Source: Moniliella sp. 'wahieum' | Taxonomy: Eukaryota | Direction: 5' to 3' | DNA length: 64,000 nucleotides | NCBI GenBank assembly: GCA_003971905.1 | Contig: RSEE01000023.1 | Location: 124,001 to 188,000, forward strand | Shown: piece after piece, positions 18,892-60,220 of the stretch | Numbering within the stretch: the stretch's first letter is position 1 | How the letters are laid out: the number at the start of each line of letters is the position of its first letter | Translations under genes and position numbers: made by a program | Notes under the pieces: generated by a model | The model's input: only the letters and a program-made list of their open reading frames with translations | What the model was told of the DNA's origin: nothing | The model's database searches: none

Positions 18892-20186
18892 CATTCCGAT
18901 CCTGAATCGTTCTGGATAATCTCGACGGTGACGGCCAAGGGTGGATGCTGGGGAGGGAATGACACTGCATGCCAGCTGCTGTTCCCCCTTTTGGTTTTGT
19001 CCCACCTACCTTTCTTTAGCGTGAACCCCCGCCCACGTGCCATTTGATGGCATCGGCTTCTCTTGTTTCCTTCACGTTTCGCGGTCAGAAACCCATGACA
19101 CGCATTACCAACTGAGTGCGGCTGGGAAAACAGTATGATGAGACCTGGGAGAGAGGGATGTAATCGCACCAAGTGGTGGCGGTTGTGGTGGCCTAAACCA
19201 ATGAGCAACGCTGACATGGTACAGAGGAACATCAATAATTCCAACAGCAGTCGCCACCAAGGGCTAGACTCCGGAACAAGGAAAACAGAGACAAGAAAAC
19301 AACGCAACTCCTGGGCCTGAAGAGGGACCGGGGGGACGTTTTGGCCAAAAAAACGAGCCACCCGGTGGCTCAACGCATAAGTACAGATGGCAACTGGAGC
19401 CTTAGGTTCTCTCCCAAAGCACTGCTGTCATTCCTTTGCATTCTCATGCATCACGTGGTAGATATGGAGAGTACCTGAGTACTGACTGAGTACCTTCCCG
19501 ACGCGTTTGGTCATGAGGGAGGAGAGCGACAAAGCGAGACCGGGGTTGAAGATGGACAGAGAACATGGGATTTGCATGGGATCCCACGGCGGAGAAGGGA
19601 GATGGAAGACGGAAGACGGGAATCGGGAGGTGCGAGATGCGAGACGGGACGTTGGTTGGCCAGATGACCAAAAGAGTAAGGCCAAGCCACGAGCACAGCA
19701 GCGACCGGATGATCATCGACCCCCCGTACACCTACCAGGGCTGGCTGCCAAGCGCCAAGTGGCAAGGGCCACGTGACTCGTTCCCATGTTTGCAGACAGC
19801 CAAGCGCTCCTGCGCACTGTCGCACCAGCTCGCACCTGGCATGTCGGAGGATGCCGGGCATCGATCATCGATCATTGATAGACCGACCATCGATCACCGG
19901 AGTCCCCGATCATCGATCATCGACATCGATCATGAATATTGAATCATCGATCATCATGCATCAATCGGCGACCTCCTGCTGATCACCGATGACACACTCA
20001 TGATAGTCCTGGGTCTGATTAATGATTGGGGCGGGAAGAGTCGCCGGCGGGGGGCCCCGACGCGCAGCCGCAGGCAGCGGCCTGGAGGAGGTTAGAGCGG
20101 CCAGGTGCGATTGACGGAGCCGACAATGGTCGGGTGCTGGAATCCACTCACCGACTGGTTAGTCGCTCGCTACTTGAAGCGTGGCG

Positions 20187-20235
20187 CATGATGCATGATG
20201 CATGACGCGTGACGTGTGACGCGTCACGCGTGAAG
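20187..20235. repeat. Array of seven in-phase NN-TNA-NN heptamers (best example of a window-wide intergenic motif class)
   Basis: caTGAtg caTGAtg caTGAcg cgTGAcg tgTGAcg cgTCAcg cgTGAag. Five of the six junctions are 4-bp palindromes. Confidence 0.9.
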
Positions 20236-20940
20236 CTAAAGTGCACAACCCGCCGGACCGCGACAGCTCGCCCTCGGCCTCACATGTCAGTCACATTTGG
20301 CGCTTTGAAATTGAAGCTTGAAGCTGCGCTGAGCGCGCTGAGCTCTGCGTCCGGTTAGGCTAGTGCAGTGCGTCCACGGCGCTCGGTGGACGTTGAAGGC
20401 ATTGGATTCCATTATTTGCAGTGGGCAAGGCAGGCCAGGGCCCGCAGGGGGGCAGCGGACTCAATCTGGACCGAGTTTTTGTTTACCGTGCCGATCTCGG
20501 TCATCGATCATCGATCACTAGATCACTGACATTGTCGCTGGCAGCTTGAGGCGATGCATGGGACAGCCATTGTGTTGTACGCACCAGCGCGCAGCTGGGC
20601 AGACGAGGCCCACGCTTGGGCACAGTCGCCCCGTGGCGCCCGATGGCCGGGCGGGGGAGCAGGGGGGCAGCCAGGGCGCCGGCTGCAGGCGGGGCCTTGC
20701 AGAGGCGGAGCATGGCGTCTGCTGCTGGGCACTGCACTGGCCCTCGCCTCGCGCGCCCAGTGATATTGGTCGCAGATCGCACGCCTAGCGCAGTCCTATC
20801 GTCCTAGGCCCGCGGCGTGCTTTGTGCGTTTCCACCGAGTGCTTGCCACTTGGCTTCCCTTCGTTCCGTCCCTGTCATTCCGTCCCTCTCCCTTCCTTTC
20901 CTTCCCACCCCCAACCCCCATCCCCCCCACGGCCGCCGCC

Positions 20941-25497: not shown

Positions 25498-25813
25498 GTG
25501 GCACAGATGTGCCCCACCCAGGTCCTCCTTTGGGTGTCTCTTCGGCCTTTTGATGGCTCATTGCCTTATGGGGGCGGGAGTTTGAGAGAGAGGGGTGCAC
25601 TTTCCGCGCACTATATATACAAGACATACATTGGCTCTCCTCCTTACTGCGTCCGCGTCCATACACACCGTCAAAAGCGTGTAGTGTTATCATGGTGCGC
25701 TCGATAATTGGGTTTTTGGTTTCCACCACCCCTTTGCTGCTCTTCTTCTTCGTGTCTCTTTTGCCACTATGGATCCCTTTTTTTGTCCATCACACTTACT
25801 GTTACCTTGATCT

Positions 25814-25890
25814 TGTGAAAAGCCTTCATCGACTTATCTGTGAAAAGCCTTCATCGACTTCATCTGTGAAAAGCCTTCATCGACTTCATC
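25814..25890. repeat. Tandem repeat, 25-26-bp unit x3
   Basis: TGTGAAAAGCCTTCATCGACTT(C)ATC three times. Confidence 0.9.
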
Positions 25891-27441
25891 AGGTTCATCT
25901 TCACCCCCACTCCCACCCTTTCTCCCCCCCCGGGCAAAGGACTCCGCATAGCGAACGCTCCTGCTTGAGATCTGTTGGAGGTCTGGTATGCGGTAGCGCT
26001 GATGCTGAAGGAGTGGAATGGAGGATATGTGGTGTCACGGGCTGCGGCGGACTTGAGATGGTCCGACCAAAGCTAAGGCCCGCCCGCTCCGCACATGCCC
26101 AGTAGAGCGTGCTCCGCAGGCCAACCAAGGCACGAAGGGTCATGCTCCGCGCGGCAATAGTCGCCCCCCGTCCAAGTCCAAGTCGGCCGGCCTAAATAAG
26201 GCCACCGAGCTTCCAGCGCCGTGGCGACGCCTGTCGCCCCGTCCCCGTTTCCTTTTCCTTTCTCGGTCGCGCCTGCGGCGACCAACCCCGCTTTTGACAT
26301 GTCTTCCTTTCTACGCCCCCTCTTGTATCCGTTTCCCTTTGATCCTGCCTGTACCCCTGGTTGATGGGATCTTTTCCCTCACCTTCCATTCTCGTCTCCA
26401 CTCTCGTCCCCATTCTCGTCTCAACCTCCTCGTCTATCCTCTCGCATATCCCAGTGTCCGACTCCTGCCCGTTTTCCAGCCAATTGATCCAGTACAGGCA
26501 GCCTACTTTGTTAGCGTCCGACATCTCCTCCGATCTCGTCCTCCAGCCATTCGTCAGTCCAGTCGCGCGAGCCCTCCTTTGGTCGCGTCGATTCCAGTCT
26601 GAGTTGAGGCAGTGTTTGTCCCCCTCTGCCTCCTCCCGTCCCTAAGTCCCGGAGGCTTCAGACACGTTACTACGGCCCAAAAGCCGGTGCAGACGCATCC
26701 TTGCCACACGTGCAGCCGCCCCACCAAAGGCCTCTCCTCGTCCCTAACTCCGCTCGGACACACCAACCAGCCTAAGCCCGAAACTATCGTGAGTCGACCT
26801 ACCGTCGCCCAAGGGATTGTACCCCCAAAACCCCAGGGCGGGCCCCCTCGCGGCGCCCGCCCGTGACATGTGGTTCTGAGGAGGGTGCAGGAGGCGATGA
26901 GATGGATAAGGCCTTACATAGCCGAATGTACCGCGGAGCTGAGGGAGCATCCGGGCGGATAAGAGGGGATGCCTATCGCGCAGGAAGGCGTCATTGGGGC
27001 ATCGCCCCAACAGCGGATGCAATGGATCGCTTGATCGCTTGATATTGATATTGAGCGGGCGCCAAGGGAAAACTTATTGATCGCAATCGTCGGCAAGTCG
27101 ATAGAGGTGATATAGACGACAGCTGTGACCATGTGACATGGGACCATGAGACATGTGACCATGTGACATGTGATCTGGATAGCATGCAGGGGACCAGGGT
27201 TGTCGTCCATGCACCGTCGTGCACCCCCAATCCCCGCACTGGTCCTAGGCCTCCTCCCGCCGGCGTTGCCCGTCAGTACTCAGTACCCAGTGCGTGTGCC
27301 TGACATCTCATCGATCTCATCTGACCGCTGAGGCCCGGCGCTACCATCGGCAGCGTATATATTGGCGGCCTAGGTAGTGCAGCCTCCGTTCTCGCCATCC
27401 CCCGTCCTCTCCATCCCCCCTCCGCCTCCTCCGTCCCTACG

Positions 27442-29346: not shown

Positions 29347-29502
29347 GCGCGGCCGACGGGGGGCAGCGGTTCGGCCTGCACATAATGCTCACACCGCCTG
29401 TGCGCGGGCGTTGAGGTGCGCAATGCCGATGGTGGCAGTGCGTGGGGACACGTATGGATGCGAGGCTGGAGGTGGTGGTTGGTCTGGCGATGATCGATGA
29501 AG

Positions 29503-29812
29503 CTCACTGAGCCGAGAATCCATGTATTCCGCGGTGATTCTGTGCCCCCTCCGTGGTATGCCGTAGCTTGGATTCCGTGGCATACCGTGTTCATACCGTG
29601 TCTATACCGTGCCCATACCGTGCCCATACCGTGTTCATACCGTGCTCGTACCGTGTTCATACCGTGCTCGTACCGTGTTCATGCCGTGCTGGTACCGTGC
29701 TGGTACCGTACCTACTATACCGTGCTCGTACCATGCTCGTACCGTGCTCGTACCGTACCTATATCGTGTCCATACCGGGCCAATACCGTGCCTATACCGT
29801 GTTCATACCGTG
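29503..29812 (+). mobile_element. Solo left end of a CTCACTGA-terminated TIR transposon (TIR plus 11-bp subterminal array)
   Basis: CTCACTGAGCCGAGAATCCATGTATTCCGCGGTGATT... aligns with the left end at 30552 through TTGGATTCCGTGGCATACCGTG, followed by ~20 units of TACCGTGYYCR. Confidence 0.85.
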
Positions 29813-30239
29813 TTGACTTCAAGGCGAAGGAATTGATTATGACGCTGAGCTTGTACAAAGGCAACGGAGCTACCGACGGTGGCACCGTCTTCAAGCGCGT
29901 TGAGGTCAAGGCCAACAAAACTCATCAGAGTTATCGGATGGACCGCTGGGAAGTGCAGGGGGTGCCAGCTCTACTCAATCCCGAGTTTGAAAAAGCCGTC
30001 CCGCGTAACCCCCGGTGCCAACTACTTGGCAGATGCCGATGACGGTGATGGTGGAGGGATACAAGTACTACTGGCACATGGTCAGTGAGAGCTACTGCTC
30101 AAAGTGCTTGGACACGGGGCACTCTGCTGCCAAAGGAGGATGTCCTTGGTCAAACGAAGCTGAGGTGGTGGTTAAAGCGACATCGCCCCCGGCTCCGAAG
30201 CCCGCAGTCAAAAAGAAGCCTGCGAAAAAAGGCCCGTAA
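29813..30239 (+). pseudogene. 5'-truncated ORF with CCHC zinc-knuckle-like motif (gag/LINE ORF1-like fragment)
   Basis: ...MPMTVMVEGYKYYWHMVSESYCSKCLDTGHSAAKGGCPW... (C-x2-C-x4-H-x6-C), then a Lys/Pro-rich tail. Starts abruptly at the transposon-end junction. Confidence 0.45.
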
Positions 30240-30639
30240 AAGGAGGGGCGAAAGGACCCGTGCGGTGGCTGCGTGAACAATGAGCAATATGTCGCTTAAC
30301 TGGTTTTGTGCGAGGGAAGACGGGAGGGCCCACGACCCTACCAGACGCCCAACCGAGCAGACTCCAGATGAAGGAGAACACGAGGGCTGAGGGAGGCCCT
30401 CAGGATGGGCACTGTTGAAGGCTACAGGGAGCGGCTGCGTGGTGCACAATCGCGCTGACCTGCGAGCATACTGTCCCTTAGACGTTAAACACTTACAAAT
30501 ACCCTATCTTACTATACTACAAAAATATGGATAATGGTCATGCAGATCATGCTCACTGATCCGAGGCTCCAGGTATTCCGCGGTGATTCCGTACCCCTCC
30601 CGTGGTATTCAGTAGTATTCCGTAGTTTGGATTCCGTGG

Positions 30640-31008
30640 CATACCGTGCCCGTTCCGTACTTCTCCCGTACCACTTCCGTACCTCTTCCGTACCTCTTCC
30701 GTACCACTTCCGTGCCCGTTCCGTACCACTTCCGTACTTCTTCCGTACCACTTCCGTACCACTTCCGTGCCCATTTCGTACCACTTCCGTACTTCTTCCG
30801 TACCACTTCCGCACCACTTCCGTGCCCATTTCGTACCACTTCCGTACCACTTCCGTACCACTTCCGTACCCATTTCGTACCACTTCCGTACCACTTCCGT
30901 ACCCGTTCCGTGCGCGTTCCGTACCCGTTCCGTACCCGTTCCGTACCTCTTCCGTACCTCTTCCGTACCTCTTCCGTACCTCTTCCGTGCCCGTTCCGTG
31001 TTCATACT
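30640..31008. repeat. Left subterminal array of 11-bp units
   Basis: About 30 units of TACCACTTCCG / TACCTCTTCCG / TACCCGTTCCG / TGCCCATTTCG. Confidence 0.9.
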
Positions 31009-31719
31009 GTTGTATTCTATGGGATAAGTGCGCCCCTCCATCTTGAAAAAAAAGTGAGAACGAAATCCATAGACACACCACACAGGTTAGAATTTTTTTC
31101 AACCACGGAAACACCACAGAACTCCACGGGTTACCAAGGGTTACCACGGGTTACCACGGAATGGAAATGGCGTCCTAGGGTTACACTAGGGTTAGCTTAT
31201 AAGCCTTAGGGTTAGCTTATAATGCAATGTATCGGTACAGGGTTACATTGCTCAATACTTTGGGGGCCTATATGCGGCCCTCACTAGCCTCATTGGCAGT
31301 TGTGTTACTTTAGATCCTTTAGATATATGGGACATCTCTGTTGGGCTAATAGTGATTGTATTACTAAGGGTGCTACGGGAGGCAAGCAAGGCAAGGCAAT
31401 ACTGGTGGAGAAGATGCATCAGGCCTCAGGCCGTTAATCAGGGAAACGCAGCGTGAAGGCGCAACAGGAAGGGGCAGAACAGGCAGAATGGGGCCGCCTC
31501 GCGCGCAAGTTCCATCCACAGCAATCGATCGTACCGTTGCTTGATATCACAAATGGTGGCATGCTCCCTTTGACATGCTATCGGTAATTCTCACTGCGGA
31601 AGTACGGGTTAACATACCAAGCACATCAGAGGTTGATATATGATACCAACATGCATACCATGTAAGTCAGTGCCCAAGCATGTAAGTACCCACTTGTAGG
31701 AAGAGGTTAGTACCCAAGA

Positions 31720-31823
31720 AGCAGATCAGTACTCCCAGCAGGTCAGTACCAGCAGCAGGTCAGTATACCCAGCAGGTCAGTACACCCAACAGCAGGTCAG
31801 TACACCCAGCAGGTCAGTACACC
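31720..31823. repeat. Internal tandem repeat, ~17-bp period x6
   Basis: AGCAGGTCAGTA cores at 31720 (variant), 31737, 31754, 31771, 31791 and 31808. Confidence 0.85.
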
Positions 31824-32099
31824 TAGCAAAGACAGTACGGGGACGATTGGTTGGTCGCCACAGGACAGCAGGCATCAGTTGTTGAGATGCCGACAGATCT
31901 TTGGTTAGCACCTTACCCCAGTTTTGGTCTTCGGTTGGTCTGCAGGAAAGTGTGGAAATATTAGTGATAGGCATGTCGGGAAGGCGGTTGTTAGGGAAGA
32001 GGAGACCGGTGTGGAGGGGGGGAGGGGGGGGGGGGTATATATATCATTCAACTGTGAAAGGGGCGGTAAGAGGAGGACTGATGCAACAAGAGCAAAAGC

Positions 32100-33205
32100 A
32101 GTGTGGTTCTGGTGGGAAGGTGCACAGACCAGTAACGCCGACGCACGGACCCCCCACAGCTCAGCATATTAGCCCTGCGCTGTGCGTGTGGGAACAGCCC
32201 CTGGCAACCTCCGCAGCATACCCACACGCCACCGAGCTCCGAGAGCTCCTGGCGCCTCAAAGAGCTCTAAACGTACCATTTATTACGTCCCAACAGTCCT
32301 GCTGAGCCACCGGGTGGCCCGTGCTTTTGCCAACGTCCCTTCAGGTCCTCCTCAAGCCGGCCTAGGAGTTCCGTTTTGTTTCCTCCCTCCTGGTTGTCCT
32401 TGGTCCGCAGTTTTGCCCCTGGTGGCGACTCGCTGTCTGAAGCTTGATGCTCCTCTGTAGGGGTTGCTGGTTGACTTAGACCACCATCACCACCACCACC
32501 ATCAGTGCGATTGTATCACCCTCGAGGACCATCCAGACTCCAGGTTTCATCAAAAGTCCACCCATCCGAGGGCCGGCACATGTACGCTCCTGTGGAGTAT
32601 ATACTAGCCGTGTGCGATGCGGCAAAATGAGGCCCCGGGAACGTCCGCGGAGCTCCAAAGGAGTACATATCACCCTCTGGCCCTCATGATGGTCCACTCT
32701 CCACGTCTTCGCCAGGTTTTCCCCTCGGTCCTCTCCATCATCATGTCCGCCTCCTGGTCCGCCCCCTGGTCCGCCCCCTGGAGTCGTTTACTCTCTTCAG
32801 ACCACGGTAATGTACAACATCGCTGACGCTAAAGCACAGCAAGCACATCTATGGCAAGTGTGTCCGGCGAGCGAGCGTGCCGCCCTTGCGATATTGTTGG
32901 GCGCAAGAGGCATGGGGTGGGGTATATTGGCCAACGACACAATCCCTCTGAAATTTGCCCGCTGCTGGGCGACGGAAGCGATGATATTGATACCATCCAT
33001 TCTCCGTTGCGCATACCCGAAGACTGGGTCAACTGCAGAGTACACACGCACAAGAGCTTGAAGACCATGGGTCAGTCGCAAGCCAGAATTTTTTCAAGGC
33101 AGATACAGGATGGCCGACATTACCTCAACCTGAAAGCGCCTCTCATCATCATATGTGCCCTTCCTTTCATCCTGTTGAGCCCATGCACACCACCTTTCTC
33201 AATCT
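32100..33205 (-). pseudogene. 5'-truncated accessory ORF of the transposon
   Basis: KVVCMAQQDERKGTYDDERRFQVE-[GT..CTGAC..AG intron ~33123-33057]-ALVRVYSAVDPVFGYAQRRMDG...RGIVSLANI, then a Gly/Asp/Pro-rich low-complexity tail. Lies inside the TIRs. Confidence 0.45.
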
Positions 33206-33232
33206 GAGAAGAACGGTCTACGTGATCCAAGA

Positions 33233-34481
33233 TTGCCCATACATTTGGGTGCCGCCCATGTTGACCTTTTTAACGAGTTTCAGATGAAGTGTGCGTCCTC
33301 ATTCCCGAAACAGTTGTGTTTCTTATACTGATTGAATGAGCTAACCTTGAAACACAGGTCGATTAGGTTTCTTCCTTCTTCGTTTTGTAGTGGAGTGCCT
33401 CGTTCGATTGGTTCTGCTTGTAACAGCGGCATGCGCATGTTTGAGATTGCAGTCATATGAGTTGCATGCTTTATCCGTTCGTCAAGTTGCATTATCTGCC
33501 TCAGCAGATACTCGATCTGGGGAGCGTGATGCTTAGGCTGTTTGTCAACGGAAAATGTATGCTGCCGACGTCGAACGTCTCCGAACAACGGCCCTGCCAT
33601 TTTGTCAACGGTTTCACGACTTCACTGTTCCAAACGGTCTGAACGAAGAGATCAACCACATTCGATCTCGGTGCACAACACTCTTCATTGGGCTGACAAC
33701 ATGTGGAGATACGGCAATTGGCAGGCGATATGGACCGCCCCGGCAGAATGGGAACAGGGATGGTTGGGCCGCCATATCCGTTCGTTTACCAAACCGTATC
33801 CTGTCCTTGCTAACGAGGCGAGCAGGAGGAACCAGGATAACTTGGTTGGCATTCGCATGGATTCCATGCTCCCCCAAGCTATGACCACACTTTCGGTTGG
33901 GTTGAATCACAAACGAGAAGCTATTATTGATGGGCTCGATGGTGCAAGGGGGGATGCGGCGTTGCTGTGCTCGTTCAACATTGACCCTACCGCCCATTTA
34001 TCGATCTGGGCAGTAGCCGAGTGGGGGCCAAAAATGAGAACAGGCAACGTGTTCGAGGGCAACAGGGTCAGAATGCCTCGTCCCGTCTAGGACACTGTGT
34101 GCAACTACTCACAACAAATGCAGGCATTGTATAGCAATTGGCGCACGATGGGCACTTTTTCATGTTGATTGACTACTACATTGGGGTGGAGACCGATGAA
34201 GCGGGCTCCGAATACTACATTGTTGGTAGAACTCATCCGATTGATGCTGAAGGTAATGCGTCTCTACCACGCGATGAACAAGGCTTTCACAGAGCGACGT
34301 TCGCATCAGTAAACAACATTGTCGTCCCACTTGCCGACATTGGGTGGGTCATGGGACACATACCCTTGAGAAGGAAGTTCTGAGTTCGGATGCATTAGCA
34401 CGAATTGCAGCGGATGACGACGTTTCTGACGAGGAGGTTTGGATTTACCCTCACCCATTGGGTGCCGAACTTGGTGTCTGA
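33233..34481 (+). pseudogene. C-terminal half of an EnSpm/CACTA(CMC)-like DDE transposase
   Basis: Stitched: RFLPSSFCSGVPRSIG...DVERLRTTALPFCQRFHDF...ISVHNTLHWADNMWRYGNWQAIWTAPAEWEQGWLGRHIRSFTKPYPVLAN. This matches the EnSpm pattern LPSxF.R.PR ... HxxxH...G....WxxPxER..G.L. Intron at ~33292-33357. The N-terminal catalytic region is absent. Confidence 0.7.
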
Positions 34482-35279
34482 CAAAAAACACTATAAGTGT
34501 TGCGTGTGCCAAGGTACATTTTATTCCCGAGGAAAAGAGAAGGGAAAACAATATGCGTGCTGCCTTTGTTGGGTACTGTTTTGTTGGTGAAACGAAACGG
34601 AAATCAAATGGAGATCGGCATCAGAAATGCACAGTGGAACTGGAAGCTATCAAGCACTGGGATCGATCGAAGACGAAGGCTCACGAGCAGAAGCTGTTGG
34701 CATAGGTGCAAAAGAGACACGCAGAAGACTGCTATTGTAGGTGTATAAGGTGCTAAGCGCTCTTAGCCTTGAAAAGGATTGAGTGAGAGTGCTGCTGCCC
34801 TTTTGCACTCTACCATTTTTTCTCCAAGCCCAACGCCGGGCTAACGATTCTTCTTCCGAGTGTGCTCCCAAGTCGCACGCTCGCAAGTGTCAGTGTTGGC
34901 GAAGGGGGAACGGTGGCTAAGGTGGCGAAGGTTCCACGGTGGCTACGGTGGCGACCAAGCACCAGCTGGGGCTTCGCGTCGGCCCGGTGGTCTCCTTGTG
35001 GGTGATAAAATCCTCCAGCGTGGAACGGTGGGCCGGTGGCTACGGTGGCGAGCAAGCACCAAGCACCAAGCTGGGGCGAAGCCCCAGCTGGCCGGGCCGT
35101 AGGCCCGGTGGTCTTCTAGTGAAATTTCATTACTTGATTGCCAGGTCGAAATTTTTGCACGCTCGCAAGTGTTGCTCTTTCTCAACATTTCATTGCAGTA
35201 ATGAAATTTGATTACCGATTGCCAGGTCGAGATTTTTGAGCCTGACTCTTTCCTTGAATTTCTAGCCGCCTCGCAAAAC

Positions 35280-35460
35280 CCACCACGGAACACTCCGACA
35301 TACCGCGACATGGCACGACATGTCGCGGACTACCACCACATGTCGCGGAATACCACGGAACACCACAACATACCACGGAACGAAAAAAAGATCAAGACCC
35401 GATGGCCACGAAATGACACGGATTCACCACGACATACACGACATACCACGACATACTACG
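35280..35460. repeat. Right subterminal array of ~10-bp units
   Basis: Repeated ATACCACGGA / ACATACCACG / ACACCACGGA-like units, in inverted orientation to the TCCGTGGTAT units of the left end. Confidence 0.75.
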
Positions 35461-35519
35461 GAATACCACGGAAGGGGTACGGAATTACCGCGGAATACCT
35501 GGAGCCTCGGCTCAGTGAG

Positions 35520-35724
35520 GATCATGTTCTCTGGATATACGGGGCCATCAAAATAGTGTAAAAGAGCCCTGCATAGTAGTAAGTCCATCTAATCCACGGC
35601 ACAACAACTGTAACAGAGAAAAAGGAGTAGCCTGATCTGTGGCTGTTTCCACTACTAAGATCATGTTCTCTGCATATACTCGGGACCATCGAAAATAGTG
35701 TAAAAGAGCCCTGCATACTAGTAT
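35520..35724. repeat. Diverged ~62-bp direct repeat, 139-bp spacing
   Basis: GATCATGTTCTCTG.ATATAC..GG.CCATC.AAAATAGTGTAAAAGAGCCCTGCATA.TAGTA at 35520 and 35659. Confidence 0.85.
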
Positions 35725-35919
35725 ACAAGTGAGCCAATAGGTTCAACTTCATCAACCACATCAAGATGCATTGTATTATTATCGTGGTTCTCAAAGCTAA
35801 TGACCGTGCATGCCTCAGTGCGGACTGGTATATACAGAGTAACTACAATCCCAGTGTGGCGTCCTTCTTTCTCGTCCGACCTCGACAATCACAAAGAGGC
35901 GGAGAGGAGAAATACTTGT

Positions 35920-44167: not shown

Positions 44168-44729
44168 GCGAGCCAATCACTGCTAGCCCATTTGTACCCA
44201 CCTCAGCCCCACCCCTCACCCGCCCCCCGCAAGAGGACCCTGTATGCTACACCAGGTCAGAGTGTAATTGTATCATGTTTTCCGCCTCCTCCGGTAGCTG
44301 CTTCCAAGCATCCTTTCTCCGTACTGCATGTATCTAGAAGACCTTCGCTTCTAAAGCTACCTGGTGGCGTGCATGTGAGGGAATATGGTGGATACAGTGT
44401 TCCGAGGAGAGGTACAGGAGACTGAGGCATAGCGCCTTATATGCAACCGAGGATCCGGGGGCACGGGTGCACCCACATGGACCGGAGGGGTATTTCCTAT
44501 CACGCCATGTCGCGTAAAAGGGAGCACTCCAACATCCTCAACACTTCAAGAGACTCAGAGAAACTCATCGTATGTGGGGGTTTGTGTTACATAGTAGGCT
44601 CGACGAGAAGGGGGGGAGGGGATCGCAAGGGGGGGTGGGGAGGAAGCGAACGGGAGGTGGACGCAGCCAACGGGGGAAGAGAAGTTGGAAGATGCCTGGG
44701 CAAGAGGATTGAATGGCCAACTCCAAGGC

Positions 44730-45323
44730 TTACCAGCCTCCCTGGTTGCCGCCGTAACCTTGCTGGCCGTAACCGCCTTGGGGTCCACCGTAACCGCCTT
44801 GGTTGCCGCCGTAGCCGCCCTGGTTACCGCCGTAGCCACCCTGGTTGCCATTGTAGCCGCCCTGGTTGCCACCGTACTTGTTGTCGCCGCCAAATCCGCC
44901 CGAAGCGAACGATTCCTCTTCCCTCTTGGCCTTGTGCTCCTCGTAGCGGCCGTGAATGTGCTCGCCAACCTTCTTGCCTACCTCCGCAAGAATGGCACCG
45001 CCAGCAATGGAAACAAAGTTGCCATGCTGCGAGCCGGTCGCCTTGTTGGCAGCAAAGCCAGCAAGGCCACCGAGGGCCATGGTGCCGAGACCGCGGTCAC
45101 CACCCTCGCCCTGGTTGCCTTGGCCATCAAACTCGTTGCCGCCGCGGTATTCCTGGTTGGCGCCGCCTTGGTACGATTGGGACTCTCCGTAGCCCTGGTT
45201 GCCCTGGCCGTAGCCTTGGTTTTGGCCGTAGCCTTGGTCTTGGCCGTAGCCCTGGTTTTGGCCGTAGCCTTGGTTTTGGCCGTAGCCGCCAGCGCCGGGT
45301 TCAGGGAATCCACCGTAGGACAT
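44730..45323 (-). CDS. Gly/Gln/Asn/Tyr-rich protein with central glycine-zipper segment (197 aa)
   Basis: Intact ORF: (GYGQNQ)x5-like N-terminal repeats, GEGGDRGLGTMALGGLAG...IAGGAILA, (GGNQGGY)x6-like C-terminal repeats. Confidence 0.85.
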   Translation of the reverse strand: MSYGGFPEPGAGGYGQNQGYGQNQGYGQDQGYGQNQGYGQGNQGYGESQSYQGGANQEYRGGNEFDGQGNQGEGGDRGLGTMALGGLAGFAANKATGSQHGNFVSIAGGAILAEVGKKVGEHIHGRYEEHKAKREEESFASGGFGGDNKYGGNQGGYNGNQGGYGGNQGGYGGNQGGYGGPQGGYGQQGYGGNQGGW

Positions 45324-46443
45324 TGTGGTTGAGAGGGTTGGAAGGTGAGGTGGGAGGTGAGGTGGGGGAGGAGAGAGTGGGCAGGAAGCTCGTGGGGGGG
45401 AAAACCAGAGTGGAAGGTGGGGAGGCACCTTTTAAGAAGCGTAGGGCGCTGCTCCAACCCGCGCCGCAGCGACCAGTGAGCCTGCGCCGATGGAATGGAC
45501 AGTGGAGATGTCAAGCACAGGGCGGGAGGCAAGTGTGGTGCCGCTGTGTGACACAGTGGTGCGCAACGCACAGGGGCGCTGTCGGCGTTCCTCCTGCCCA
45601 CACGGCACTGCGGCCGCCTGTCCAGGCACCTGCGTGGACCGGGCTGTGCACGGCCGTCGGGGTGTGACATGATGTGACGCATCCGCAGACTGCTGGGCTG
45701 CGGAGGGCTGCGGACTGCGTTGCATTTGCTCAGCGGGCGGCCGGCCCGACGCAACCGGACGCATCATCATTGCATCAGATCCAGATGCGACCAGATGCCG
45801 CCGATAAGCGGAACTGGCCCTGTGCTGCGGACCACCGATGTTTGCGCTCGGCTGGCTCATTAGCGCTGCGCCGCGCTGCTGCTGGCTGCTGGCTGCGTGC
45901 AACCTCGGCCCGGACACCACCTGGCACCCGAGCTGCCCCAGGCTGCCCCGTGCTGCCCCCCTTGGCAGTCCCCAAACCGCGTGAGGTTGGCGGATAGAGC
46001 ACACTGCCCCTGCGCCCGCGCGTTCCTGGGTCGTCCAGCCCCAGGGTACTCAGTCGGAGTACTCGGTCTCCAGCGCTCAGCCCCTGGCAGGCGCCGGCTG
46101 CGCGGGTCTGCGCAGGCGTCTGCACTGCCACGTACTGCGCTGCGCTGGCCACGTCACCACCTCCGTCGGACATGCGCAGACCGCCCGCGCTGAGGCTATG
46201 CTGGGCGGAAATGCAGTTCCGCCCCTCGCCACGCGAGTGGATGGCGCGTACGGAACGCAACATTTCATTCACGCGGGACGCGGGACCGCCTCGCGTCGCG
46301 TTTGGTGGTCTGGTGCTTTCTGAGCGCAGCGCCGGTGAGGCGTCCGCCCCTGAGGCCTGCGGGGCGATGCTATCCATCTCGTCCTCCCAGTCGCGTCAGC
46401 GTCCGCGCGTCCGCCTCCCCGTCTGCGCCGCCACCACCCCGCC

Positions 46444-57392: not shown

Positions 57393-60220
57393 TAGGAGGC
57401 GGGGGTATCGGGATGATGTCGATGATGAGAATTCCTGAAGCCTGAGGGCTTCAGAGAGATGGAGAGGAAGAAAACAGGGGGCGGGGGGGGGGGGCGGGTA
57501 ACCGGTAACCGATGACTTGGACCATATAGCATGCGGGGAAGCGGTAGAGGAAGATATAGCTAGTGACCGGTGACGCGTTACGCGTTACGCATCATGTTAG
57601 CGCCTGTTACATGATAGCGCTTAGCGCTCAAGCGTGCTTGGTAGCGCCTAGGTGGTTACTATATCCGACGGTTACTGAGGTTTCCTCCAAATTTGCTATT
57701 TACTCTAGCCCCTAGGGCCACTAGCACCAACCGAACTAAGTGCTAAGTGCTGATCGCGCTGGTCAAGCATGCTTTCCCAACAGGGGGGTGGGGGGTACCG
57801 GGTACCGGTTACCCCGTGTTGCCAGTATGTCTGTCACATGCAGCGTCACACATGTCACACTCTCGGTATGCCCAACAACCCCGTCCGTTGGGGCTTTTTG
57901 GTCTTACAATAGGCCGAGGGAGTGGATACTAGAGAGCTCGCCCCACGGCGGTTGTTGCGCCCGCGTGGCAGGGCGTGGCAAGTGGAGGTGCTCATTAACA
58001 TTGTGGGGGCGATTCGCGTGGGAGCTGGTAACTCCGGTAACTGGTAACTGAATACTGTCTGACTGGGCCCGGTGGACGCTGCAATCCCTCTCCGCTTGCC
58101 TCATCGGTCACTCATCGATGACCATCGATTCTACCAGCAGTTGGCCAAGATGACACCGCTGCAATGGTGAGACATCTCGGCCCGCCGGCGGCCGCCGGCC
58201 CAGGGTCCAGCAAATCCCTCGCTGCGGCAGAGACCACTTTTGAAGGTAGGGTCACGGGTGATCAGTGACCATCACTGACGCGTGACGACGCTTAAAGGTT
58301 TTGAAGCTCTCCATTTCCCACATGTGCCCCTGATCGCCTGGGCGTCGGAGCTACGGTCTGCCATGGCACTGCGCCTTGCCCGGAGGAAGGCGGTTGGGGA
58401 AGCGTACGCATAGGAAAGCTGTAGCTTAACAGTCGGAAGCAGAAGCAAGTCCTGAAGGAGGCAAATGATTAGGCTGGCAGAGGAGGTAGACACGGTTTCC
58501 GAAGAAAACGAAGGAGGATTACCTGATTGCTAACAAGAGGACAGTCACAAAGCGCTACAATGCGAGACACAAGTCGGCCCGTGGGCAGAGTAAGAGATGG
58601 CGCTGACGCGTGACGAGCGACAGTGACTAGTGCCTAGTGACCAACTAGTGGCCTAGTGACACGCGCGCATTACCGAAGACACGCCACGGGGCCAGTGACT
58701 TTGGAATGACTAGTGACTGCCCCGGGGAGGCAGGGGCACATGCAGGGGGCATGCCGGGTGCCGTGGGGCCCCACTTCAGCACAGGCGCCGTGCTTCCTTT
58801 GCTGCTTGGCGCAGCGCGTGAGCAACTGGATCCTCGGAGTCTGTGATTGAGCCCTGATCGATGATCATCGATCATCTATCACGCAGCCATACGCCAGGCC
58901 CCAGCCCACTCAGTTACCCAATAACCAAATGCTGCGCAATGCGGCTCAGCGCCGGAGCAGTGTACCTGGCTGGGCATGGATGGAGAGTGCATCCCTGAAT
59001 CCTGGGGCAGGTGGTTCGAAGTTGGCTGAGCGCGGGCAGGGCTGAGCGGCTGAGCAGCGCTGACCAGTGACTAGTGCGGCCTAGGGCCGCGGATCGAGGC
59101 TAACTGGGTGACCGCGGTGGCTGGGAGCCAGCAACTGGTAACTGTTGCTGGCTGGGTACCTGGGTGCACAGGCTCAGCGGCCAGCACGAGAGTCGAGTAC
59201 GACCGCATACGAAGTATATTGGTACTGACCTGGTGCCGTACCTACTGAACGTTGGACGCTAGACGATGGACGTTGGACGAGCGCAGCCGACGTCTGCGCT
59301 GGGCGGCAGCAGGCGGCAGTTGAGCAGCAGCGGCGGCTAGTGGGGATGCGAAATGCGCGGCCCGCCAGCCAGCACACACACCATCATGCCATGTCGCATG
59401 TCGGCAGCAGCATCGCGTGCCAACAATACTGCCCCCGTGGCTCGGCTGGGCGGCGCAGGCACCGCTGGCACTGCTCGCGCTCCTGTCTCCACGATCCAAT
59501 CCCCCGGCTCTTCCCGCACTGTGCGCATCACACACCAGCCATCACGCATGGCATGTATCAGTGCAAGAGGCGCCAGGAGGAGCCCCAGGGAGCCCCACAC
59601 TTTCTCGCATCTGCGTGGCACTGCGCCGCAGTCTGCCGCACTGCCCGCCTGTGCGTCCCTCCTTTTTCCGTTCGATGTTCGCCGCCGCCCAGACACGCCC
59701 AGACATGGTGTTGCGATGCATGTGCCCCCCAGTGCTGCCACCCCCTGCTCCTCCCCGTGCCCGCACACGCTGCAAGCTCAGAGTGACACCCACCATCCAA
59801 GACCTCAACGTCTCAACGCCTCAACCACTCAGTCCTCCAGTCGCTCCACAGCCACCGAGCCCCCCCCCTCGGCCACCAGCTCACCGGCCACAACTCACGG
59901 GCATCACCGGTCACTCCACGCTGCTAGCCCTTGGCGCTTACTAGCCCCCCCCCCGTCACGCTAGTCGTCATACACGTCATAGCTGTGTAACCATGTAACC
60001 GGTGACCGGTGACCCAACCTGGCCACATTCCCCCGCCACACTCGGCCGGCTCCAGCCACAATCCCACCCGAACAACCCCCCCTCCCTCCCCGGGTATAAA
60101 ACCTGACAGTAGTCGTCCTGGTCACTCATCCTTCTCTTACCCTCTTGGCTACTCTTCCGTTCTCCCACCTCTTCCAGTACCCGCATTGTTCTCTTCCATC
60201 CACGCATCCATCACCAGCAC

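Follow-up and report, generated by a model that had tools for sequence, protein, structure and literature searches.

Palindromic heptamer arrays as probable transposon excision scars in a 64-kb contig segment of Moniliella sp. 'wahieum'

RESULTS

Two related insertions, A and B

The stretch of DNA analysed here, called the window throughout, is a single 64-kb segment (64 000 positions) of a contig from Moniliella sp. 'wahieum' (RSEE01000023.1, positions 124 001 to 188 000). It contains two related insertions of a family of cut-and-paste transposons, which we call A and B, and many arrays of 7-nt units (heptamers) that have the trinucleotide TNA at their centre. A first-pass annotation of the same DNA had proposed that the two insertions were caught at re-used hotspots and that the geometry of their target duplications is also that of the arrays. 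Our results support this proposal: the 7-bp duplication of B is centred on TCA and the flank heptamer of A on TGA, the arrays have a period of 7, and the left junctions of both insertions lie on heptamer doublets. They further suggest that the arrays are the scars left by serial excision of elements having this geometry.

Element B (30552-35519, plus strand; 4968 bp) is a non-autonomous element bounded by terminal inverted repeats of about 60 bp and by an exact 7-bp duplication. Its left inverted repeat (30552-30629, plus strand) starts with the 9-bp near-palindrome CTCACTGAT, and its right one lies at 35442-35519 on the minus strand; the 84-nt arms are 88% complementary, and the two ends match each other at 19 of 20, 38 of 40 and 56 of 60 positions. 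The direct repeat GATCATG, centred on TCA, flanks the element on both sides with 7 of 7 bases identical (30545-30551 and 35520-35526, plus strand). When the whole window was scanned for exact 7-bp direct repeats bracketing inverted ends, B was the sole hit at a score of at least 13/14, and none was found in 10 simulated sequences. Six further structures with 7-bp repeats scored 11-12/14, which is within chance (1-7 hits in the 10 simulated sequences); a candidate at 26027-26868 was dropped because, beyond the seed, its ends agree at 22 of 60 positions only. Inside each end of B there are subterminal tandem repeats with a unit of about one helical turn: 31.5 copies of an 11-bp unit, TTCCGTACCAC, on the left (30653-30999, plus strand) and 6.5 copies of a 10-bp unit resembling CCACGACATA on the right (35406-35470, plus strand).

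Element A is represented by a lone left terminal inverted repeat (29503-29570, plus strand), which pairs over 70 nt with the right end of B at 86% complementarity; in comparisons over 40 positions, 35 agree with the left end of B and 35 with its right end. It is followed by about 21 copies of an 11-bp subterminal tandem repeat, CATACCGTGCT (29581-29812, plus strand). A right end of A was not found in the window at up to 2-3 mismatches. The heptamer GATGAAG, which adjoins A on its left (29496-29502, plus strand), is presumed to be the left copy of its 7-bp duplication, the right copy not being visible.

The tip of the A and B ends is CTCACTGAG, a 9-bp near-palindrome. The terminus motif CTCACTGA.CCGAG occurs three times in the window, at 29503 (plus strand), 30552 (plus strand) and 35519 (minus strand), and an inner motif, GTATTCCGCGGT.ATTC, is confined to the same three ends (3 matches against 0.12 expected; no shuffled sequence reached 3). 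The terminus can be written as CTCACTGA.CCGAG, followed by 7 nt and GTATTCCGCGG. The terminus pattern gave no match in metagenome contigs. The dinucleotide that precedes CTCACTG varies among the three ends (AG, TG and TC), so that the element must start at the C of CTCACTG and the duplication be 7 bp long rather than 3. The three flanking heptamers, gaTGAag, gaTCAtg and (on the reverse strand) caTGAtc, all have a T at position 3 and an A at position 5. All three ends thus begin 2 nt after a TNA; there are 2547 TNA cores in the 64 000 positions, i.e. 4.0% of the window.

Organization of the heptamer arrays

The abundance of the arrays was compared to expectations derived from second-order Markov simulations. 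Exact arrays of at least two heptamers number 37, against 3.87 expected; 23 of the arrays found are of the palindromic NNTNANN type (0.41 expected) and 22 have a TNA core (0.04 expected). The arrays have a period of 7 and a TNA centre, in the same phase as in the target duplication. Chains of TNA cores spaced by 7 nt are also in excess: 15 of length 3 against 3.9 expected and 5 of length 4 against 0.12; single chains of 5 and of 7 cores are present as well.

To describe how the units are joined, the 182 pairs of neighbouring TNA cores lying 7 nt apart were classed according to their 4-nt spacer. A palindromic spacer matching both flanks was found in 17 pairs (about 0 expected), and one matching the flank on one side only in 37 pairs (0.86 expected); plain duplication of a non-palindromic heptamer was seen in only 2 pairs (0.47 expected). 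The spacer typically consists of a flank dinucleotide and its reverse complement, as in CGTGA-CGCG-TGACA, GTTGA-AGCT-TGAAG and GATGA-TCGA-TGAAG. The tie between the arrays and the target duplication drawn by the first-pass annotation stands, with the amendment that the arrays are mostly made of TNA cores separated by flank-derived 4-nt palindromes and are not simple repeats of a target. Since all 16 palindromic tetramers are present among the spacers, the palindromy is made by a process and not chosen by a sequence-specific protein; recognition of one specific palindrome was ruled out on this ground. The centre base of neighbouring units is the same in 56 cases, its complement in 11 and another base in 6, and the complement flips would fit occasional longer tracts of inverted copying. 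A heterogeneous array of seven units at 20187-20235 (CATGATG CATGATG CATGACG CGTGACG TGTGACG CGTCACG CGTGAAG) illustrates these features: its spacers alternate between TGCA and CGCG and its centre base flips between G and C.

The longest heptamer tract lies at 19859-19955. It comprises about 13 units of GATCATC/CATCGAT, with 69% matches and 12% indels. Small indels divide it into short in-phase runs, which gives it the appearance of an old array in decay.

Inserts between heptamer copies

Besides the arrays of period 7, there are heptamer pairs separated by a few nucleotides. A search that made no use of TNA, for a 7-mer followed by two palindromic (P) nucleotides and the same 7-mer, the P nucleotides being complementary either to the end of the 7-mer before them or to the first bases of the copy after them, gave 16 hits, corresponding to about 12 loci, against 0.63 expected. 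In 9 of the 12 loci, TNA nevertheless occupies positions 3-5. Unambiguous scars of this type are GATGATG TC GATGATG (57412-57427), in which the 2-nt insert is the reverse complement of GA, the first two bases of the second copy, GGTAACT CC GGTAACT, CTTGATC GA CTTGATC and TCTCATC GA TCTCATC. In a census of duplicated TNA-centred heptamers, in which up to one mismatch was allowed, 40 of the 51 inserts of 1-3 nt between intact copies proved to be the reverse complement of an adjoining copy end, while 1.26 would be expected by chance. The proportion depends on insert length: P-type inserts account for 19 of the 1-nt inserts (2 are of another type), for 16 of the 2-nt inserts (6 others), for 5 of the 3-nt inserts (3 others) and for none of the 21 inserts of 4-6 nt. 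The 'kept overhang' form was counted 38+33, 6+5, 9+7, 1+4 and 4+1 times for periods of 7, 8, 9, 10 and 11, respectively, about 0.4 being expected each time. Retained copies of the duplication together with reverse-complement inserts, the footprint by which hairpin-forming transposons are recognized, are therefore found here. Joints following the rule of Ac/Ds, i.e. centred on the complement of the element-adjacent base, are not enriched in the window (2 against 0.47 expected), in contrast with the 37 and 17 even-palindrome scars. A hairpin of hAT type, offset by one base, was accordingly discarded.

Altogether, the window contains 87 scar pairs, 75 of which lie in the 54% of its length that is outside open reading frames (ORFs) of at least 200 amino acids, hereafter non-ORF DNA. 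They cluster at 0-2, 18-22, 38-40 and 56-60 kb. As a negative control we used 14 metagenome loci of other sources, 81.9 kb in total, where pairs with palindromic spacers are not enriched in this way (25 found, 18.1 expected); the scar signal is thus a property of this genome and not of the method.

Two observations may be added on scars. The sole control locus with a mild excess of pairs of the form TNA, 4-nt palindrome, TNA is L005 (9 against 3.3 expected), and they include CCTCAGGCCTCAGG. At 25806-25890 of the window, a 26-bp tandem repeat is present in 3.3 copies, the unit of which contains the period-9 scar CTTCATC GA CTTCATC; the scar was apparently amplified inside the larger repeat.

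Insertions sitting on scars

The left junction of A lies within such an arrangement. The perfectly palindromic heptamer of NNTNANN type GATGATC (29489-29495, plus strand) is immediately followed by GATGAAG (29496-29502), with a TC|GA junction between them, and CTCACTGAG starts at 29503, so that A begins exactly at a heptamer boundary, as first noted from the sequence alone. The doublet GATGA-TCGA-TGAAG, of which GATGATC is the left unit, is one of the 37 pairs in which one flank matches the spacer, and A sits on its right-hand unit. The three heptamers that the first-pass annotation placed before the second insertion are also present, but they are not in phase: GATAATG (30530-30536) overlaps GGTCATG (30536-30542) by one base, and 2 nt separate the latter from GATCATG (30545-30551). 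GGTCATG CA GATCATG has the form of a period-9 scar, i.e. heptamer, two P nucleotides and heptamer, and the left copy of the duplication of B is its right-hand unit. The CA insert is the terminal TG of GGTCATG in reverse complement, hence of P-nucleotide type. The segment 30530-30544 (plus strand) can be described as older, decayed scars composed of GATAATG, (G)GTCATG and CA.

A scar-type doublet thus adjoins two of the three junction sides examined. The chance that a TNA heptamer lies next to a scar doublet is, per side, 87/2547 over the window and 68/1421 when only non-ORF DNA is considered and the element region is set aside, which gives P = 0.0034 and P = 0.0067, respectively. Both targets begin with the half-site GA, which is also more frequent in scars than any other half-site (15%, against a background of 8.5%). 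The stronger argument for the link is one of geometry, since the length of the duplication equals the period of the arrays and the phase of TNA with respect to the centres of the palindromes is the same. We therefore consider it probable, at about 0.7 for the two statements taken jointly, that the heptamer arrays are scars left by the serial excision of elements whose 7-bp duplication is centred on TNA, and that the sites occupied by A and B had been used before.

A transposase relic in B

Pfam searches at E values up to 1 revealed no transposase domain, PF02992 included, in the 27 ORFs of at least 60 amino acids from A and B. The same 27 ORFs contain neither a Mutator domain nor a BED finger or hAT dimerisation domain indicative of a hAT transposase, a gene that a non-autonomous copy could lack. 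More remote similarity was found for one ORF of B (33530-34090), which has two weak matches, with E values of 3e-4 and 8.5e-4, among 1.84 billion representatives. A profile built from this ORF and its two matches recovered five proteins of 933-1172 amino acids, all of which carry PF02992 (Tnp2) and four of which are named Tilletia indica. Residues 45-112 of the ORF align with residues 887-954 of one of the PF02992 proteins (pairwise E value of 9e-9), and a conserved glutamate is retained. The corresponding segment of about 68 amino acids (33659-33856, plus strand) is thus best described as what remains of the C-terminal block of a transposase of the Tnp2/CACTA type. As judged from these alignments, B is a non-autonomous element that carries this CACTA/EnSpm-type relic. 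The relic could reflect the ancestry of B itself or could be captured DNA. Downstream of it, on the same strand, another ORF of B (34399-34590) encodes a cysteine-rich stretch, KCCVCQ...YACCLC, with sub-threshold Pfam matches to FlhC and zf-CRD (E values of 0.007-0.04).

Scanning metagenome contigs with the protein profile revealed relatives of the relic at 14 loci, the ones used above as a negative control because the heptamer signal is seen in none of them. Screening of the six longest for inverted repeats detected none with an A/B terminus flanking the match; an inverted pair of 50 nt in L005 is not a clean terminal repeat. The tip sequence CTCACTGAG occurs once each in L002 and L006, at a distance from the relic matches. 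A word-index search with P0121 recovered only P0121 itself, and the protein atlas provided leads only, namely clusters in which Plavaka, Transposase_21 or DUF4218 is found on 11-59% of the members.

Other sequences within and around the insertions

Between the subterminal repeats of A and element B, at 29837-30240, there are two adjoining ORFs of about 67 and 76 amino acids with no Pfam match; the product of the second has a lysine-rich end and a Cys/His cluster (CSKCLDTGHSAAKGGC). This segment may be cargo of A.

Inside B, at 31590-31610, a third CTCACTG follows a TNA-centred heptamer, GGTAATT, and is itself followed by CGGAAGTACGG, which is similar to the subterminal motif. It was excluded from the count of ends because a partner end was not found in the window and because the 7-mer is present 9 times, on both strands; it could belong to a nested, truncated relative or be due to chance. 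About 110 bp further, at 31704-31828, a distinct tandem array has the 17-bp unit AGCAGGTCAGTACACCC in about 6-7 copies. The segment 31124-31225, also inside B, contains GGGTTACCAC repeats (10 bp, 3.6 copies) and two copies of TAGGGTTAGCTTATAA; these strings resemble the telomere repeat TTAGGG.

On the right of B, the 62 bp that start exactly with GATCATG (35520-35581; GATCATGTTCTCTG...) are found again about 140 bp downstream, at 35660-35725, with about 90% identity. The 78 bp lying between the two copies include a CCACGGCACAAC stretch that resembles the subterminal motif of B. This 62-bp repeat may be the trace of an earlier insertion or of an aberrant repair.

DISCUSSION

A possible mechanism for scar formation and array growth

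From the observed anatomy of the elements, their 7-bp duplication and its TNA centring, the scar statistics and the geometry of the junctions, we infer a hairpin chemistry in which arrays grew because sites were visited repeatedly, and in which the scars were made by the family of A and B rather than by a sister family of the same geometry. Formation of hairpins on the flanks is a feature common to hAT, Mutator, Transib and V(D)J recombination; as described in PMC5499845, they are opened by host enzymes and repaired by end joining, with footprints. For Ac/Ds, P-nucleotide footprints are reported in yeasts (PMC5873905).

Insertion would proceed through a staggered 7-bp cut centred on TNA (NN-TNA-NN), which would duplicate a heptamer that can be written ab-TNA-fg. 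On excision, each flank would be sealed as a hairpin with its tip exactly at the border between the duplication and the element. Opening of the hairpin by a host nuclease about 2 nt off the tip would create 4-nt self-complementary overhangs, namely fg+g'f' at the left flank and b'a'+ab at the right one. In V(D)J recombination and Transib, hairpins are opened about 2 nt off the tip, and both RAG and Transib nick exactly at the border. When only one of the two overhangs escapes clipping, the product should be TNA, a 4-nt palindrome and TNA, with a period of 7; if the opposite copy retains one or two of its end bases, the period would become 8 or 9; and if the other copy stays intact, the outcome would be heptamer, 1-3 P nucleotides and heptamer, with periods of 8-10. 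The new unit produced by a period-7 repair would be a perfect palindromic heptamer. When hit again, it would give identical overhangs that could religate without loss and thereby add one exact unit, so that palindromic arrays could grow through repeated visits, possibly aided by replication slippage. Such a religation scheme would account for palindromic arrays being the end state, for the hybrid unit often present at one edge of an array and for the rarity of plain non-palindromic duplications. A and B would then be insertions into the right-hand unit of older scars.

Alternative explanations

Several observations speak against the interpretation of the arrays as excision scars re-used by A and B. 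With regard to the junctions, no scar is seen on the right flank of B or at the in-phase heptamer upstream of its duplication, and the left unit at B is one base off (GGTCATG compared to GATCATG). The link is based on two insertions (three ends) which are 1 kb apart, and the duplication of A is presumed, its right end not being visible. With regard to the arrays, 19 core pairs have a palindromic spacer that matches neither flank (4.95 expected). In GGTCATC GATCATC GATCACT, for example, the TCGA spacers are explained by neither flank, the CGCG spacers of the array at 20187 have no visible source, and the array at 20499 likewise has sourceless spacers. As to the mechanism, opening 2 nt off the tip combined with a nick exactly at the border is deduced from the even palindromes, and long uniform arrays could have grown by replication slippage instead of repeated visits.

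An extension of this last point would be that the arrays are nothing else than short tandem repeats generated by slippage, or arrays of protein-binding sites, and that a transposon with a preference for NNTNANN happened to land beside two of them. Long uniform arrays are indeed reminiscent of minisatellites, as with the four units of GGTAACC or the tract of about 13 units of GATCATC at 19859-19955, but slippage should not produce spacer palindromes of all 16 kinds while leaving plain non-palindromic duplications at 2 against 0.47 expected. Neither would it account for the 40 of 51 short inserts that are the reverse complement of an adjoining copy end, nor for units of the same array that switch half-sites and flip their centre base, and we regard this explanation as quite improbable. 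A milder and less improbable objection, which we still hold to be unlikely, is that the scars are real and due to elements with a 7-bp, TNA-centred duplication, but were made by a sister or an older family, the adjacency of A and B being a coincidence or a regional effect. Apart from those of the junctions, scars are few in the 28-32 kb bins, the clusters lying elsewhere, and, with two insertions, the P values of 0.003-0.007 depend on a baseline perhaps unfit for the region. Moreover, several lineages with a 7-bp duplication are described in fungi, such as hAT7 and Kyakuja (PMC12730594). This has to be set against the fact that, for both insertions, the heptamer that was duplicated stands on the right in a doublet of the same sequence (GATGA../GATGAAG and GGTCATG/GATCATG), and that the GA half-site shared by the two targets is the one most used in scars.

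Given the Tnp2-type relic in B and the presence of CACTG at nucleotides 3-7 of the terminus, one may also think of a canonical CACTA/EnSpm element with a 3-bp TNA duplication, in which case the outer 2+2 bases would be part of the element or agree fortuitously. Arrays of subterminal repeats, such as B has, are typical of CACTA elements. Against this stands the 7 of 7 agreement of the flanks of B, the four extra bases having 1 chance in 256 to match; AG, TG and TC before CTCACTG differ as flanking DNA would, and the P nucleotides of scars such as GATGATG TC GATGATG complement the ends of the 7-mer, not those of TNA. A 3-bp duplication with leftover element bases was therefore rejected on account of the flank match and of the 7-mer-based scars, and we consider it the least probable of the explanations discussed here, hardly to be credited at all.

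Comparison with known transposons

The affinities of the A/B element are mixed. It bears some resemblance to CACTA/EnSpm elements (Tnp2, PF02992) in its relic of about 68 amino acids, which could be captured DNA, its near-tip CACTG and its many subterminal repeats, but differs from them by a duplication of 7 bp instead of 3 (2-3) and by a tip that starts 2 nt before CAC, CACTG thus occupying nucleotides 3-7 and not 1-5. The scars call to mind V(D)J coding joints and Transib, from which even-length P nucleotides are expected as a result of the border nick and the off-tip opening, except that transposition in those systems generates 5-bp duplications. Flank hairpins are likewise attributed to them in PMC5499845. 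No homology to RAG or Transib came to light here, although no search was aimed at it.

The likeness to Ac/Ds, a hAT element, concerns the excision products: both copies of the duplication stay at the donor site, inverted P nucleotides are added, trimming is variable, and the host opens the hairpins and joins the ends (as related in PMC5873905). However, in the Ac/Ds data presented there the palindromes are centred on the complement of the element-adjacent base, and so have an odd centre, whereas here the palindromes are even and the copies intact. The duplication is 8 bp long for Ac/Ds and 7 bp here, and the density of scars is far higher in the present case, about 87 pairs in 64 kb, stacked into arrays. 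Another hAT group, hAT7 from Puccinia and Melampsora, has in common with B a 7-bp duplication (7/7 in B; PMC12730594), and with both A and B short subterminal repeats; these fungi are of the subphylum that includes the nearest named relative of the window, Melampsora, as judged from the trehalose-synthase fragment. Yet the termini of the 16 hAT7 consensus sequences compared, taken from among the entries of Table S1 of that paper, are of the CA(A/G)NG type, starting CAAC.. or CAGC.. (e.g. CAACGGTGGG, CAACACTGGG and CAGCGATGGG), as opposed to CTCACTGAG here, the relic of B is Tnp2-like and its type of footprint is not that of hAT. Mutator elements of the Muta1 type share with A and B a terminal palindromic motif, subterminal tandem repeats of about one helical turn and presumably, to judge from the scars, flank hairpins, but the account in PMC5499845 gives them duplications of 8-9 bp, compared to 7 bp here, and more than 90% precise excision. 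Finally, Kyakuja (KDZ) elements of basidiomycetes make 7-bp duplications, as does B; they are described in PMC12730594 as having CA..TG termini without inverted repeats, unlike B with its CT..AG termini and 84-nt inverted repeats that are 88% complementary. The element is therefore set apart from hAT7, Kyakuja, CACTA/EnSpm and Muta1, and we file it under none of them.

Significance

None of our full-text literature searches turned up an account of heptamer arrays that are palindromic and centred on TNA, or of such serial footprints. The process by which hairpins give rise to P-nucleotide footprints is textbook knowledge; the 7-bp, TNA-centred, even-palindrome form, its density and the stacking into arrays were not found in the literature searched. 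Excision footprints are usually seen as isolated and rare marks, while here they seem to be a principal component of the DNA between genes, with about 1.4 scar pairs per kb, stacked into arrays of up to 7 units according to a simple rule legible in the sequence itself. If this were true genome-wide, there would be tens of thousands of such pairs per genome. They would constitute a natural record of thousands of excision repairs, in which the opening and joining of hairpins in this fungus could be read. They would also supply a concrete mechanism whereby a transposon creates hotspots for itself, as well as tandem repeats and palindromes, beside genes, and would point to a cut-and-paste lineage with a 7-bp duplication and yet a relic of a CACTA-type transposase. 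Annotators would then have to be cautious before calling similar arrays microsatellites or clusters of binding sites.

We may speculate further, in a tentative scenario to which we give less than even odds, that A and B belong to an undescribed lineage related to CACTA/Tnp2, with a 7-bp, TNA-centred stagger and flank hairpins nicked at the border. Its palindromic scars would be preferred and cleanly religatable, hence self-reinforcing, hotspots, and repeated visits would have written much of the intergenic DNA (promoters and terminators) as arrays.

Other features of the window

A long ORF without Pfam match, at 44426-45667, is built of tandem repeats of 18, 21 and 42 bp that are rich in Gly, Tyr and Asn codons on one strand. 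Other long ORFs of the window match COG7, the KA1 kinase domain, serine carboxypeptidase S10, Duc1, trehalose-phosphate synthase and an MFS transporter, and by these similarities the content of the window is eukaryotic and fungal in character; the fungus is basidiomycete-like. The trehalose-synthase fragment has protein matches of up to 75% identity, the best named one being from Melampsora larici-populina, at 56%.

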